From positions 4,480,001-4,544,000 of the forward strand of contig CM000153.2 in NCBI GenBank assembly GCA_000004695.1: a stretch of DNA of 64,000 nucleotides. The letters are read 5' to 3'. The position numbers and the translations under genes are program-made. This document shows positions 2,591-38,429 of this stretch, piece by piece. The DNA is from Dictyostelium discoideum. Lineage: Eukaryota. Below the pieces are notes generated by a model. The model was not told where the DNA came from, did not search any database, and was given only the letters and a program-made list of their open reading frames with translations. Numbering within the stretch: the stretch's first letter is position 1; each line of letters begins with the position of its first letter.

Positions 2591-5205
2591 TTAAATACGA
2601 AAATAAGCATTAATATTATAATTGGGATTATTATTACTAAAATTATGGAGAAATGGTTTGTTACTGCTACTAAATTGATAGATATCACTCCCACCATTTT
2701 TACTTGAATCACTATTATTACTTTCATTACTACTATCACTACTATTATTACTATTACTATTACTATTACTATCTATTACTATTACTATTGCTATTACTAC
2801 TACTATTACTACTATTACTACTATTACTACAAATTTTATTTTGATTATACAAAGGATAATAATTACCCTCCATTTATGATTGTTTTGGATTACTAACAAT
2901 ATAGTGTTATTATTATTAATTGTACATATTATATCTGATGGTGGATAGCATTTAATTTCAAGTTGAGTATTTGAAATGATATCGCATGGTTTATTATTGA
3001 TGGTTACTGATAAATCTATAAATATTACCGAACCAACCATTTAATATTATAGAATACCAAGTTCAGTTTGTTGTAGTTGTTGTGAATTAACTTGATGATT
3101 TGGTGTTAAACACATTGAATCAATCCATTGATTTGTACAATTACACTGACCATTGATTTGATTACAAATACCTTGATTACATCCTAATCCATTATTACAT
3201 TCACATACACCATTTATATAATTACAGAAACTACCATTTTCATCATTACAATCTGATGAACATTTCAATGATCTTAATTCACATTGATAACCTCTCCATT
3301 CATTTGAAAAACAATCACAAACACCCTTCACATAACTATATTCACCACTATTTTTAGCACAATTTGGAATTGGACAATTACTACCATTACAAATTTGATT
3401 CAATTTGAAATTAAAACTATTCGATACATTCATAACTTGAACTAAACAATTAATTTCTTTATTATTATTTACAATACCACCACTATTACTACCTACTTGT
3501 ATCACTGTTACCTTATTATTGATGATTTTATTTGAATTATAAAGATAACATTGAATTTGATTGAAATTACTTGATAATACTAAACAAGGTTCGTTTGAGA
3601 TTAAAACATTGATAACCGTATTATTATATGCAAAGTTTTTACCATTGATAATGAAATAATCTGAATATCTAATAACTGAATCAATTTGTGGTATGAATTC
3701 ATTATAAGCTGTAATTTCAAAAGTTCTTGGACCTTGAGGTAAATATGGAAATGTAATATTGAATCCTTTTGGCATTGGTTGAGTTGAAAAGATATTATTT
3801 TTCAATTGGAATGCTCTATTTGGTGTTATAATAGCAGTTGCAAAATTTTTATCAAACAATGCATGATTGGCGATTTACCACTTATTAAATTATTTCTAAT
3901 GTTACTAACATCAAAATTAACTTCACACCACTATCATCCATTTCTCCAGTAATTTCATTATTATATAAATAATATTCACTATGGGAAATTTAACTTGGTA
4001 ATGGAGTTTTAATACTATTGTTTTGAAATTTTATATATTTAATATTTGTCAATTTTTCATTAATATTTTTAAATTTACCTAAATTTCCATTCTTAAATTC
4101 ACTCTATAAAAAAGATTTAATCATTAATAACTTTTAAATGATTTTAATACTTTTACAATTGGTTGAATATATTTACAGTAAAAACAAATTTTTTGGTAAT
4201 CCAGAAAATGGAAAATCACCATCAATATTGAATAATTTACCTGAACTATTAAATTAATAGAAAAAAAGTTATAAAAGGAGTTAATAAATATCTTGTTTCA
4301 TTTGGGGTAGGATCTCATTCAATACTTTAAATAACCTTTTAATTTAACCAAAACTTACATTGATACCTCATTTTCATAATTATTTGATAAATTAATAAAG
4401 GTAGGAGGCGTATCTATTTGATAAGTAATTGTACTTAATATATTGTTTTTTTTTTAAAAAAAGTTAAAATAATTGTAATAATAATAAAAAATAATGGAGA
4501 AAATAAATAAAAAATATTTACAGACCAGTATTTTTATTTCAGCTGGTATTTCACTTAAAGCAATAGGGAAGGGATATATTTGAGTTTTGTCTGAAGGTGT
4601 TATTGAAAATGCAATTACATTTGAAAATTTTGAAAAAATTGAAAATGAATATATATCAGCTCCACCTAAAAGTGTGAGTTGACTTTTTTTTATTAAAAAA
4701 TGTTTTTTTTTTAAATAATTATTAATATTTATAACATTGGGTAAAAAAAAAAAAAAAAAAAAAAATATATATATAAAAAATAATAAAAAAAAAAAAAATT
4801 TGTAAATACAAACAAAATAGATAAATTAATGTTTTTCACTGATGGTATATTATGAGAATATATGTTATAAATATTGAAAATGGCAGTCGTGGTATCATTC
4901 AAGTCATTTATAAAATTTATTTTATATTTTGGTTTTTGAGTTTGGTTTTTCAACTGAAATTTTTGAACATTTAAAAAACTTGAGAAATATATATTTAGTG
5001 GTCCAGAAAGGTACAATAATAAACTTAATGATTCTACTTGTATAATTTTATTGAACCCAATTTCCACATCAAATAATGATGAATTACCAATAAATAATGA
5101 CATACATGTTAAAGTATTTGGAAATTTTCCTATTAAAAAATTATTTTCAACTTTAAATAAATCTATATTACTGATTTATATTATTTACATATTAGATTTA
5201 TGTAT

Positions 5206-26468: not shown

Positions 26469-30076
<3,608 letters not shown>

Positions 30077-33272: not shown

Positions 33273-33568
33273 TTAAGAAGATTTTACTTGAATTGGATTA
33301 ATTTGGGAATATAATAAATTTGAAGCGTCAATACCTTTTAAAAATTCGACTATTTTTAGAGCAAATGGAATAGTGACACCAGCTGAAGAAGCAGTGATAA
33401 TATTTCCATCAACCACTATTGTCTGATCTAATAATTCAATTGAATCTTGCATAAATTGATTACAACCTGGAAAATGAGTTACTTTTCTACCTTTTAATAA
33501 ACCACATTTACCAAAAATTTGTGGTGCTGCACAAATTGCTGCTAAAAATCTGTTATTATTATTTTCAA

Positions 33569-33638
<70 letters not shown>

Positions 33639-33947
33639 TATTTCATTTGAATATAATAAACCAAATCTTTTAATGGCATCAATTAATTTTTGATTTGTTA
33701 ATTGTTGAACGATTCCAGGACCACCTGGAATAATTATTCCATTATAATTTGAGAGTGTTTCAATGAAATCTTGAAATTTATATTCTGTTACTAATTCAAT
33801 ATAATGTGAACCTTTAATTGATTTCTTATCATTATCAATTGAAATTAAGTCAACTCTAATATTAGCTCTTCTTAAAAGATCAAGAGTTGTTACACATTCA
33901 ATCTCTTCGAAACCATCAAAAATTATCATTGCAACCTGAATCGCCAT
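33273..33947 (-). CDS. DJ-1/PfpI (ThiJ) family protein. 224 aa, single exon.
   Basis: The N-terminus MAIQVAMIIFDGFEEIECVTTLDLLRRANIRVDLIS is followed by GIIIPGGPG and then FLAAICAAPQIFGKCGLLKGRKVTHFPG, with the nucleophile-elbow Cys in AICAAP. A run of 24 Asn from the (AAT)n tract at about 33570-33640 is inserted between conserved blocks. Confidence 0.65.
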
Positions 33948-34744: not shown

Positions 34745-36077
34745 TTATAAAATTGATTGATTGAAATCTTTGAAATAAGGATGCTTCATTGCCTCCTTTG
34801 CAGTTAATCTTTCTGTTGGATCATAACGTAATAATTTATCTAAAAAGTCAATTGCATCAGGTTGCGCAATATCATCATTTTCATATGGTATAAATCTTTC
34901 CCAATTACTTTTTTGTCGTCTATATATATATATATATATATTTAATATAAAAAAAAAAAAAAAGAAAAAAAGAAAAAGTTAATAATGATAATGATAATTG
35001 AATATTATCATTATTATTATTTTAATAAATACATACGGTTTAATTAAAGAGGATTGTTCATCAGTTAAAGATAAACCAAATTTATCCAAAAAGTTAAATA
35101 AATCATCAGTACCTAAAACTTTAACAATTTTTAATAATTGATCATTATTATTATCACCATTAAAGAAAGGATCTCTATCTAAAATCAAACCAGCGAATAA
35201 ACAACCCAATGACCACATATCTAAACTATAATCATAGTCAAACATATTCACCAATAATTCGGGTGGTTTATAATGTCTAGAGGCAACTCTAACATTATAA
35301 TTCTTACCTGGATGATAATATTCCGCTAATCCCCAATCAATTAATGATAATTTCCTCTTTGAATGATCAATTGCAATATTTAATGGTTTTATATCTCTAT
35401 GTATTATACCTTTTGAATGTGTGTAATCAATTGCCTAATAATAAAAAATAAAAATAATAATAATTAATAACCACCAATATAAATATAAATTATTTAATAA
35501 TAATAAAATTAATGATAATACTTACTTTTAATAATTCAAAAATATAATATCTAATATCATAATCATCCAATGTATAAACTAATTCTCTAATGTCAGTTTT
35601 ATTTACAAATGGGAAAACTAGACTACAAACTTTTGAAGATTGATCTTTAACTGAATCCAATAGTGGTATAATGTTTGGACCACCATTTAAACTCTCCAAT
35701 ATTTTAATTTCTCTTTGAATCTTTAATTTTTGAACTGGTTTCAAAACTTTGATTACAACTTCATCAGAGGTCTCTATATCGATACCACTAAAAACTTCAC
35801 TATATTTACCACGACCAATCTTTTGAATCACTTCATATCTATCTACATTCTTCCAATTGATACGATAACCTTCATAATCGTAATATGATTTTGGTTGATT
35901 TTCATTAACATCTCTATAAACTTTTGAAATATTTCTTAAAATTCTACCTTCCATCATATCTTCTTCAATAATTAAACCATTACCATTTTGTTGTTGTTGT
36001 TGTAACTGTTGTTGTTGTTGTAATTCTAATTGTTTTTTCTTTTCAGTTTCTTCTTGTTCTTTTCTTTGTTTTTCAAG

Positions 36078-36140
<63 letters not shown>

Positions 36141-36524
36141 TAGTAATTGCTGTTGTTGTTGTTGTAATTGTTGTTGTTGTTGAATTTGTTGTTTATTTAA
36201 AGAATGTGAAGGATTTGCATTCATAAATTCATTGATATCCTTTTCGATATCGGTTAGAGCTTGTGAACCACTTCCCATACTACCACCTAATCCACTACTA
36301 ACTGATTGGTGTAACTCTGATGTATCATATGATGAGGATTGAGTATGATGTCTTTTATTACATTTTGTGCAATCATCATTATCACTGCTATTTTTATTAT
36401 TAGATTTACCTCTTCGATTTCTAAAGTTACTATGGTGATGATGTTGTTTATTTTTAATATTACTTTTATTATCGCTATTATTATTGCTACTATTATTATT
36501 ACAATTTTCAGTTAATTTTGAATC

Positions 36525-36605
<81 letters not shown>

Positions 36606-36770
36606 TGAAGAATTTGAGGATAGTGATCCTCCCATATATAAATATCCAATTATTGGTGCGAATAAACATGGACTTGAATAGGGTGAGTATGGATTTATAT
36701 ACCCACATGATATAACATATAAAATACAAAGTAAATAAAGTAAAAAGAAAATTTGGTAATATTTCCCCAT
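34745..36770 (-). CDS. Casein kinase II alpha-like serine/threonine kinase, a divergent paralog. Three exons: 35526..36770 (or starting at 36635), 35037..35434 and 34745..34919.
   Basis: The CK2-alpha signature is present along the catalytic core: [22 protein letters not shown]...[10 protein letters not shown]...[39 protein letters not shown]...[12 protein letters not shown], then a GTAAGT donor, then [62 protein letters not shown]...[12 protein letters not shown]...[10 protein letters not shown], then a GTATGT donor in phase 2, then [50 protein letters not shown]. The catalytic core is preceded by about 290 aa of N-, Q-, S- and H-rich low complexity. An alternative start exists at MGGSLSS (ATG at 36635). 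Confidence 0.7.
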
Positions 36771-36809
36771 TATTTAAATTATACAATCTTTTTTATAATT
36801 TTATTATTA

Positions 36810-36931
<122 letters not shown>

Positions 36932-38429
36932 TTTATTTTTGTTGTTGTTGTTGTTGTTTAAATGTATACTACTAATAAAATTTTTTTTTTTTTTTTTTAA
37001 TTCTTTTTAATTGAAACTATTATGAGAAATTTTAATAAAAAAAAAAAATTTCGTTGATAAATAATAAAATACTATTATTACTATTACTATTTCTATTATT
37101 TATTTATAATTAAATATTATTATTATTATTATTATTACAATTATTATTATTATTATTTTATTTTTATTTTAATTTTATTTTAATTTTATTTTAATTTTTT
37201 ATTTTTATTTTATTTTTATTTGGTATTTATTATAAAACTGTTATTATATCTGTTATCTAAAAATACAAATATTGGTATTAATATTAAATTTTTTTTTTTT
37301 TTTTTTTATGGTTTGTGTGTTTTATTAATATTAAGTTTTTTTTTTTTTTTTTATGGTTTGTGTGTTTTATTTTCTTTTAAAAAAGATCCTTTTTTTTTAA
37401 AAAAAAAAAAAAAAAAAATCAAATACAAAATATATTTATATATACACTTCATATTTATTATAGCAAATATTATTTAAAATAAAAAATATAAAAAAATATA
37501 AAAAAAGTTTATTCTTTTATACTTACAATATAATAATTGAGATATAAATTATATCAAATTTTTTGTATTTTAAATGTTTTTGAAGAGTGTTTTCAACAAC
37601 TAATTTTTTGAAAAAAAAAATAAAAAAAAAAAAATAAAAATAAAAATAAAAAAAAAAAATATAAAAAAAATAAAAAAATAAAAAAAAAAAAAGAAATTTC
37701 GTTTTGCCAACAATTGAAAACTTTTTAGATATTTATAACGACAAAATGTCCCATTAGACCCCATTTTTTTTTAATTAATTTTTTTATTTTTTTTTTTTTT
37801 TTATTGTAATGGATAAAAAAAAAAAAAAAAAAAAAAAAAAGATATTTGTAAATTTTTTTTTTTTTAATAGGAAAGATGTTGTGTTTATTTAAATATTTAA
37901 TAATTTTTTTAACTATTAATAAAGTTTAAAGAAATCATCACTTTTTTTTATTTTTTTTTATTTTTTTTTTTTTATTGTTTTTATTATTATATTTTTTTTA
38001 TTATTTTTATTTTAGTTTTTATTTTTTTTATTGATTAGTTCCCCCACCCAATATTTGGATTTTTTTTTTTTTTTTTTTCTTTAAAAAAAAAAAAAAAACT
38101 TTAATTTTGAAAAATTATTTTTTTTGGAAATTCCTAAAGAAACCCTTGTAAATTTTTTTATTTTTTTTTTTTTTTTTTTTTATTTTTTTTTATTTTTTGA
38201 ATATCCTAGTTTTTTTTTTTGTTTTGTTTTATAAATTTAATAAAAGGGTTAATTTTTGTATATTTAATAGAAATGAAATACAAATTTCATATGCAATTTT
38301 TTTTTTTTTAAAATTTTTTTTTTTTTTTTTATTTTTTTTTATATTTTTCTTTTTTATTTTTTTTTTTTTTTATTTTTTTATTTTCCCAACCTACGACAAA
38401 CGATTGTGGAAAAAAAAAAAAAAAAAAAA

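Follow-up and report, generated by a model that had tools for sequence, protein, structure and literature searches.

A clade-specific, possibly membrane-anchoring N-terminal module on a second CK2-type kinase of Dictyostelium discoideum

The 64,000-nt stretch of Dictyostelium discoideum DNA analysed here (the window; GenBank assembly GCA_000004695.1, contig CM000153.2, positions 4,480,001 to 4,544,000 of the forward strand) is extremely AT-rich and contains coding poly-Asn and poly-Gln tracts, both of which are typical of Dictyostelium. On its minus strand, at 36770..34745, it carries a gene for a 605-aa protein in which a kinase core of the CK2-alpha type is preceded by a long N-terminal extension. 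The limits of the coding sequence (CDS), which are exactly those given in an initial annotation of the window, enclose three exons, with the start ATG at 36770..36768 and a TAA stop at 34747..34745. The first ATG that follows an upstream stop codon opens the reading frame (open reading frame, ORF), which is uninterrupted for 415 codons, until a GTAAGT donor at 35525. The annotated protein of D. citrinum could be reproduced only with an intron equivalent to intron 1; Polysphondylium violaceum, which has intron 2 in common with D. discoideum, has no intron at the site of intron 1. The exon 3 model was checked against the D. citrinum protein, the C-terminus of which is identical. The gene is organised as follows:

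35526..36770, minus strand: exon 1, codons 1–415, a single ORF holding the entire N-terminal extension and the kinase N-lobe up to ..FELLK, GT donor at 35525
35435..35525, minus strand: intron 1, 91 nt, GTAAGT..TTAG
35037..35434, minus strand: exon 2, from AIDYTHSKG.. to ..SSLIKP, with the catalytic-loop and P+1-loop motifs
34920..35036, minus strand: intron 2, 117 nt, GTATGT..ATAG, at the same position as in P. violaceum
34745..34919, minus strand: exon 3, from RQKSNWERF.. to ..KDFNQSIL, followed by TAA

Bioinformatics analysis revealed that the protein has a Pfam Pkinase domain at residues 312–597 (E-value, 2.8e-58), and a Pfam scan of all 605 residues found no domain in the N-terminal extension. 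Among the matches to solved structures, the best 60 of 2109 were all CK2-alpha, with E-values of 2e-132 to 1e-128 over the whole core and with maize CK2-alpha at 2e-132. The AlphaFold structure was predicted for the orthologue from Tieghemostelium lacteum, from a 72-sequence alignment; an earlier model of the same orthologue, made from a 9-sequence alignment, had a mean predicted local distance difference test score (pLDDT) of 44.5 and was too poor for use. In the T. lacteum model, the kinase core has a pLDDT above 90, and the linker between the N-terminus and the core is mostly below 50. The model superposes on CK2-alpha of maize, Arabidopsis and human with a root-mean-square deviation of 0.9–1.2 Å and TM-scores of 0.94–0.98 normalised to target length (Foldseek), and its top 50 Foldseek matches were all CK2-alpha or alpha'. 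The Pfam assignment, the best structure matches and the superposition of the orthologue model bear out the initial annotation, in which the catalytic core had been recognised as CK2-alpha. Every sequence and fold test made places the protein in the CK2 family, and it is not the orthologue of canonical casK/CSNK2A1.

The gene has been on record for some time. In the part of Table S2 of the Dictyostelium kinome paper that was available (PMC1420674), the entry DDB0219953 matches the D. discoideum protein over approximately 400 residues, including the MGKYYQIFF.. start. DDB0219953 was classified there as CMGC/CK2 and scored as active ('a'), with the motifs VVIK, HRDIKPLN and DWG (Goldberg et al. 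2006, PMC1420674 Tables S2/S3), and it was placed beside casK (DDB0185025) in a catalogue that counts two CK2-family kinases each in Dictyostelium, yeast and human (PMC1420674). It is not discussed in the main text of that paper. The gene and its CK2 classification have thus been public since 2006, and are already known rather than a discovery; the proposal that the locus holds a second, non-canonical paralog instead of casK was correct, but not new, because DDB0219953 had been catalogued as CMGC/CK2 in that year.

The distinctness from casK is clear from the comparison of the cores, which are 60.6% identical in D. discoideum (57–61% to all canonical CK2-alpha), and from the phylogeny. In neighbour-joining analysis the paralogs form a monophyletic clade in 100 of 100 bootstraps, and the internal branching broadly groups close relatives. 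Orthologues with the extension are found in D. citrinum and D. purpureum (both in group 4 with D. discoideum), P. violaceum, T. lacteum, Synstelium, Acytostelium and Cavenderia; both the paralog and a casK-type gene are present in the species from which a casK-type protein could be recovered as well, Acytostelium and P. violaceum. The paralog core is 68–72% identical across the dictyostelid groups, compared with approximately 90% (89–93%) for casK, which is itself 69–74% identical to CK2-alpha of human, plants and other amoebozoans. A sister relationship between the paralog and dictyostelid casK was recovered in 55 of 100 bootstraps, with three shared-derived sites for it and three against it; a split from dictyostelid casK, rather than an earlier one, is hinted at by Y197, D230 and the RILRN motif, which the two have in common.

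Purifying selection is apparent along the whole protein. In comparison with D. citrinum, the ratio of non-synonymous to synonymous substitution rates (dN/dS) comes to 0.05 for the core, 0.09 for codons 1–55 and 0.21–0.24 for the linker. The synonymous rate (dS) itself is approximately three times lower in codons 1–55 (36606..36770; 0.087, from 4 differences) than in the core (0.27), which may reflect chance or an extra constraint at the nucleotide level close to the start codon.

For the analysis of the kinase core, 10 paralogs were compared with 105 canonical CK2-alpha sequences; residue numbers such as K68 and G199 follow CK2-alpha numbering. The relevant segments are:

34748..35945, minus strand: CK2-alpha-homologous core, residues 276–605, from RILRN..VYRDVN to the C-terminus, across both introns
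35703..35732, minus strand: weakened basic cluster, canonical KKKKIKREIK, in which KKKKIKRE has become QKLKIQRE
35363..35401, minus strand: catalytic loop, in which V157I and M163A are fixed throughout the paralogs
35249..35278, minus strand: P+1 loop, which retains R195 and K198 and in which Y196H, F197Y and G199P are fixed throughout the paralogs

The residues expected of a working kinase are in place. G46, G48, K68, E81, H154, R155, D156, K158, N161, D175, W176, G177, E201 and R312 are present in all 10 paralogs, in which the regulatory-spine residues are likewise intact. The DFG motif is replaced by DWG, within IDWGLAE at residues 447–453, and W176 is found in 10/10 paralogs and 105/105 canonical sequences. 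All of the paralogs also retain the residues that handle acidic substrates, namely R80 and R155 (P+3 site) and R/K191, R195 and K198 (P+1 loop). The sequence of the N-terminal segment that, in constitutively active CK2, clamps the activation segment (VY-DVN..P..Y-DYE) is present and Y26 is invariant. At the hot spots for CK2-beta binding, F54 is found in 10/10 paralogs and position 41 is I, V or L (V in 75, I in 25 and L in 5 of the canonical sequences); the neighbouring residues Q36 and E55 are changed (Q36V, E55x), and W24Y is a further N-lobe difference from the canonical proteins.

Other positions have changed throughout the clade. In the basic cluster, K74 is replaced by Q in 8/10 paralogs, K76 by L, F, H or Q in 10/10 and K79 by Q in 9/10. 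Among the canonical sequences, K74 and K75 are found in 105/105, K76 in 104/105 and K/R79 in 105/105. The hinge carries E114P, and the catalytic spine (C-spine) carries M163A, F121I/L/V and M221L; P114, A163 and PPE are found in 10/10 paralogs, compared with E114 in 105/105, M163 in 103/105 and G199 in 104/105 canonical sequences. The two divergent motifs quoted in the initial annotation are present at residues 429–439 and 468–477, and its description of the altered positions as normally invariant holds for part of them. It stands for V157 (105/105), M163 and G199, which have become I, A and P in all of the paralogs, but is too strong for H160 (100/105), Y196 (97/105) and F197 (98/105); dictyostelid casK proteins themselves all have Ser at H160, and P-Y at Y196/F197.

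The functional roles of the changed residues, as well as those of the R80 and R155 anion site and of the P+1-loop residues, were taken from published work (PMC9608649). On this basis, the paralog would be catalytically active, and acidophily is probable because both the P+3 residues (R80, R155) and the P+1 residues (R191, R195, K198) are kept. Recognition of substrates and polyanions would be altered, since three of the seven basic-cluster residues have been lost, and E114P, M163A, F121I/L/V and M221L would remodel the pocket for nucleotides and inhibitors. The use of ATP and GTP may differ from that of canonical CK2, because E114P and M163A line the nucleotide pocket. Judged from these residues, the protein is most likely an active CK2-type kinase with altered substrate, polyanion, nucleotide or inhibitor preferences. 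The standard acidic peptide substrate of CK2 is RRRADDSDDDDD.

The N-terminal extension measures approximately 265–275 aa, given that R276 aligns with R11 of casK and S282 with A9 of the human protein, or approximately 311 aa if counted to the start of the Pfam domain; the earlier figure of roughly 290 aa was a fair estimate. Its features, as seen in two alignments of orthologues (A1 and A2), are:

36699..36758, minus strand: hydrophobic segment 1, residues 5–24, predicted to be a signal-anchor or a transmembrane helix, with a conserved (S/A)-x-G-Y at its end
36618..36668, minus strand: hydrophobic segment 2, residues 35–51, a diverged D. discoideum version of YLFALPPIIGYIGGIAVRS
36633..36635, minus strand: ATG of Met46, internal and non-conserved
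36528..36605, minus strand: poly-Asn run of 26 residues (56–81), absent or different in orthologues
36360..36371, minus strand: conserved C-x-x-C (C134-T-K-C137) in a His-rich context, both Cys invariant in A2 (C103 and C106 in T. lacteum)
36282..36311, minus strand: conserved island, consensus HSSISSGIGG, in A1 and A2
36195..36254, minus strand: conserved island T173-D-I-E-KDINEF..NPSHSLN, of the form [ST]-[DE]-x-E-(K/R)-(D/E)-I-N-E-F..N-P..S-L-N, with T173-D-I at 36246..36254
36078..36137, minus strand: poly-Gln run of 20 residues (212–231) within a Q/E/K-rich stretch, of species-specific length

Segment 1 is conserved in both alignments. Its 17-residue Kyte-Doolittle mean is 2.0–2.6 in 8 of the 9 N-termini and 1.66 in Cavenderia fasciculata. 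The insertion free energy of segment 1, summed on the scale of Hessa et al. 2005 without weighting by position, lies between -0.4 and -3.0 kcal/mol in 7 of 8 species, and in the T. lacteum model it forms a 21-residue helix (residues 2–22) with a pLDDT of 87–93; by the same Kyte-Doolittle measure, canonical casK proteins have no comparable segment. The loop that follows is uncharged, rich in Pro, Tyr and Ser and 4–9 residues long (18 in C. fasciculata). It leads to segment 2, the motif of which, YLFALPPIIGYIGGIAVRS, occupies 19 consecutive invariant columns across the 6 orthologues of A2, and in most orthologues basic and His-rich residues come next.

Further downstream, conserved islands alternate with low-complexity sequence. 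The C-x-x-C pair, which lies within an L-G-C-x-x-C island and was misplaced for D. discoideum by MAFFT in A1, so that the correspondence there was established by inspection, may have a role in metal binding or redox chemistry; the region matches no known domain. The last island opens in 8 of 10 orthologues with [ST]-[DE]-x-E, a minimal CK2 consensus, and could provide an autophosphorylation or pseudosubstrate site. The poly-Asn and poly-Gln tracts would be the usual D. discoideum filler between the islands: D. citrinum lacks 20 of the Gln residues and has a different Asn-rich insert. The poly-Asn run had been put at about 28 residues, which is too long by comparison with the 26 found, and for poly-Gln the lower end of the proposed 20–25 agrees with the longest run. 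The initial annotation had treated the extension as low-complexity sequence alone; this description fails, as the conserved islands are present and the first ~50 residues are anchor-like. A profile search with the module in 1.84 billion representative proteins returned three matches, all of them these paralogs, and a literature search found no description of the conserved hydrophobic helix, the near-invariant segment or the islands. Nine other dictyostelid species have the same overall architecture, which places these features far beyond chance.

Some of the orthologous gene models required attention. D. purpureum DICPUDRAFT_43974 (395 aa; GL871569.1, L003 1361..2437) is annotated in an N-terminally truncated form, and the genomic ORF adds 146 in-frame codons with a hydrophobic N-terminus. 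In P. violaceum (AJWJ01000432.1, L002 3001..5479), the annotation includes a further 12-aa exon (MAMLKAFCSRI) upstream, separated from the rest by an intron of ~600 nt; the long ORF itself starts at 3629. The protein of Acytostelium subglobosum (530 aa, partial) has segment 1, followed by unrelated ALTACSMCLAGLTRKV.. in place of segment 2; this replacement is probably a gene-model or frame error, and not a real loss.

The position of the translation start bears directly on the nature of this N-terminus. The initial annotation noted an internal MGGSLSS motif, which is indeed found at residues 46–52 (ATG 36635..36633), and proposed it as the true start, from which an N-myristoylated product would be made and the upstream 135 nt would be a 5' untranslated region. 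The motif fits M-G-x-x-x-S, with Ser at position 6, and it also occurs in D. citrinum. Nevertheless, this reading is very improbable. The 45 codons before Met46 encode a protein sequence that is conserved wherever an orthologue has its complete N-terminus, in all of the dictyostelid groups, and residues 1–52 are the best-conserved part of the extension. Met46 itself is found only in D. discoideum and D. citrinum, within a lineage-specific two-residue insertion; elsewhere the position reads I-G or Y-I, and the region aligns with GYIGGIAVRSS in Polysphondylium, Tieghemostelium, Synstelium and Cavenderia. In D. purpureum, the genomic ORF extends 146 codons beyond the annotated start and reads MGNSEFLILLYSVAIIFAITFGYVNPYSPYSGSALFAPLIYYIGGYAVRTASS, with YYIGGYAVR and no Met at the corresponding position. 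The upstream codons are continuous with the kinase ORF in the genomic DNA of both D. purpureum and P. violaceum, and in the latter the long ORF begins with MGNFYQ, aligned with Met1. This conservation as protein and continuity with the kinase ORF also count against the suggestion that the upstream nucleotides might be untranslated.

Nucleotide-level evidence points the same way. Codons 1–45 differ from those of D. citrinum by two synonymous changes and one non-synonymous change (dN/dS ~0.1, from only three differences). Over the first 156 coding nt, the two species share 97% identity (4 differences, 3 of them synonymous), whereas the 5' flank is unalignable. The GC content is 20–32% in codons 1–45 compared with 0–18% in the 5' flank, and the base at position -3 is T at the Met46 ATG and A at the 36770 ATG. 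Deep protein conservation is a stronger argument for the translation of codons 1–45 than the dN/dS obtained from three differences. An internal myristoylated start at Met46 is therefore not supported by these comparisons; at the N-terminus proper, Met1-Gly2 (MGK or MGN) occurs in 6/10 orthologues, without Ser or Thr at position 6. Translation from ATG 36770 yields a complete CK2-alpha-type core joined, within a single exon, to an N-terminal module specific to the clade.

As for the function of this module, the helix of segment 1 would insert into a membrane, helped by the highly conserved segment 2. The short uncharged loop and segment 2 would return the chain or lie in the interface, and the positively charged and His-rich flank would, most probably, stay in the cytosol together with the kinase domain, carried on a mostly disordered linker of 150–250 residues. 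The protein would then be a Dictyostelia-specific, membrane-tethered CK2-type kinase that combines an intact, retuned core with a unique N-terminal module, its activity being localised to the membrane, possibly self-regulated through the [ST]-[DE]-x-E site and independent of CK2-beta. Judged from the sequence features described, we consider this to have somewhat less than an even chance of being right. Several observations weigh against it. Segment 2 is marginally hydrophobic (Kyte-Doolittle mean 1.3–1.7), has a pLDDT of ~30 in the T. lacteum model and is most diverged in D. discoideum, where the flanking Arg is missing. With an insertion free energy of +5 to +7 kcal/mol on the same unweighted scale (Hessa et al. 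2005), segment 2 is too polar to enter a membrane by itself. Given this unfavourable energy and the low pLDDT of segment 2, both the hairpin and a cytosolic orientation have to be taken as assumptions. In addition, the 17 kinases that are named as having strongly predicted transmembrane domains in the 2006 catalogue are all other kinases, DDB0219953 not among them (PMC1420674), and a literature search on casK or casein kinase 2 in Dictyostelium and on DDB0219953 found no study of this paralog and no expression, localisation or activity data.

The same hydrophobic N-terminus could be read as a cleavable signal peptide, cut after S-x-G and before Tyr24, or as a type II anchor with segment 2 not spanning the membrane, so that the kinase would be lumenal or extracellular. 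Behind the hydrophobic core, the conserved (S/A)-x-G|Y agrees with the -3/-1 rule for cleavage by signal peptidase; the insertion energy of segment 2 is unfavourable, and K3, the one positive charge nearby in D. discoideum, lies on the N-terminal side of segment 1. We regard this arrangement as unlikely. The hydrophobic core of 17–20 residues is longer than is typical of cleaved signals, and together with its negative insertion energy it is anchor-like rather than signal-like; most orthologues have Arg, Lys and His behind segment 2 and a loop free of them, as would fit a hairpin with a cytosolic C-terminus. Alignments revealed no conserved cysteine pairs gained in the kinase core of the paralogs, and we know of no canonical CMGC kinase that works in the secretory lumen. 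Quite improbable, in turn, is an extension that serves as an inert, disordered low-complexity spacer with no anchor, which would make the protein a soluble CK2-alpha isoform like animal alpha'. Residues 1–275 do contain 18.5% Gln and 18.5% Asn, the AlphaFold linker is largely of low confidence, and the kinome paper flagged no strong transmembrane domain; but the N-terminal 50 residues and three islands are conserved in all of the dictyostelid groups while the low-complexity tracts are not, and the 19 consecutive invariant residues in A2 and the purifying selection (dN/dS 0.09–0.24) are not what an inert spacer would show. The chance that the gene is a degenerating duplicate, or a pseudokinase with no catalytic role, is almost negligible. 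The paralog core evolves approximately three times faster than casK, and E114P, M163A and G199P replace highly conserved residues, yet the catalytic and regulatory-spine residues are intact in all 10 paralogs, the replacements are fixed in the clade and not scattered, the core dN/dS is 0.05 and the ORF is intact in every species examined. Thus, the best explanation as a whole, which we hold to be likely, is that the D. discoideum gene is DDB0219953, the second CK2-family member and a casK paralog with orthologues throughout Dictyostelia, encoding a membrane-tethered, active and retuned kinase.

Two other resemblances were considered and set aside. A mitochondrial or plastid-type presequence was rejected, as the N-terminus is uncharged and hydrophobic. 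The likeness of the loop (S-P-x3-P) to the proline knot of an oleosin-like hairpin is a mere resemblance, the prolines not being conserved in Synstelium.

The surroundings of the gene include a microsatellite and two further ORFs:

36793..36937, no strand: (AAT)n microsatellite of ~48 copies, 0% GC, located in the 5' flank with its end 23 nt before ATG 36770
33273..33947, minus strand: DJ-1/PfpI-like ORF, 224 aa, the downstream neighbour, with a ~25-residue poly-Asn insert inside the domain
26469..29321, minus strand: 950-aa ORF with long poly-Asn and poly-Thr tracts

A DJ-1/PfpI gene (PF01965) is found directly downstream of the D. purpureum orthologue too, so the synteny is conserved. The C-terminus of the 950-aa ORF resembles, by eye, a PI3/PI4-kinase catalytic domain (..DRHNGNILID..HIDYGF..).

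In comparison with casK (DDB0185025), CSNK2A1 and the CK2-alpha of maize and Arabidopsis, the paralog is of the same fold and family, with DWG, the clamp sequence, R80/R155, R191/R195/K198 and F54 in common, and with the RILRN motif shared with dictyostelid casK. Unlike casK and CSNK2A1, it has the ~270-aa N-terminal module, the weakened basic cluster, PPE for GPE, E114P and the altered C-spine. Human CK2-alpha' and yeast Cka1/Cka2 likewise represent a second CK2 catalytic gene beside the housekeeping one, but they differ mainly in their C-terminal tails and keep KKKKIKRE, GPE, E114 and M163; to our knowledge, neither CK2-alpha' nor Cka1/Cka2 has a hydrophobic N-terminal module. The plastid CK2-alpha of plants (CKA4/cpCK2; 'Casein kinase II subunit alpha-4, chloroplastic') is also a CK2-alpha paralog, directed to a particular compartment by an N-terminal extension. 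In plants this is a transit peptide, tens of residues long, that is cleaved off, whereas the Dictyostelium paralog has an uncharged hydrophobic helix, conserved islands and a long linker, in a module with no relatives outside Dictyostelia. The anchors of P450 enzymes are similar in layout, with an N-terminal hydrophobic helix, a Pro-containing segment after it and a C-terminal catalytic domain. The kinase SLOB2 has the same arrangement, a single hydrophobic helix at the extreme N-terminus being followed by a Pro-containing segment and a C-terminal catalytic domain (PMC1420674). Neither is related to the paralog in sequence. Unlike SLOB2 and the P450 anchors, the paralog has a second, near-invariant and marginally hydrophobic segment behind a short uncharged loop, a layout suggestive of a hairpin.

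The gene itself is thus a catalogued member of the kinome, for which the proposal of an alternative start and myristoylation can be dropped. The part that has not been described is the clade-restricted, probably membrane-anchoring module on a retuned CK2 core, which offers a hypothesis that can be put to the test in a model organism well suited to experiment. The usual view of CK2 is that of a soluble kinase with constitutive activity, the localisation of which depends on its partners. If the proposed tethering is true, the built-in anchor would be a natural experiment in the rewiring of CK2 specificity and localisation; if the less likely orientation is true, a CK2-type kinase would face the secretory lumen or the cell exterior. 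The loss of three basic-cluster lysines, together with the rebuilt hinge and C-spine (E114P, M163A), would likewise represent a natural experiment of this kind.

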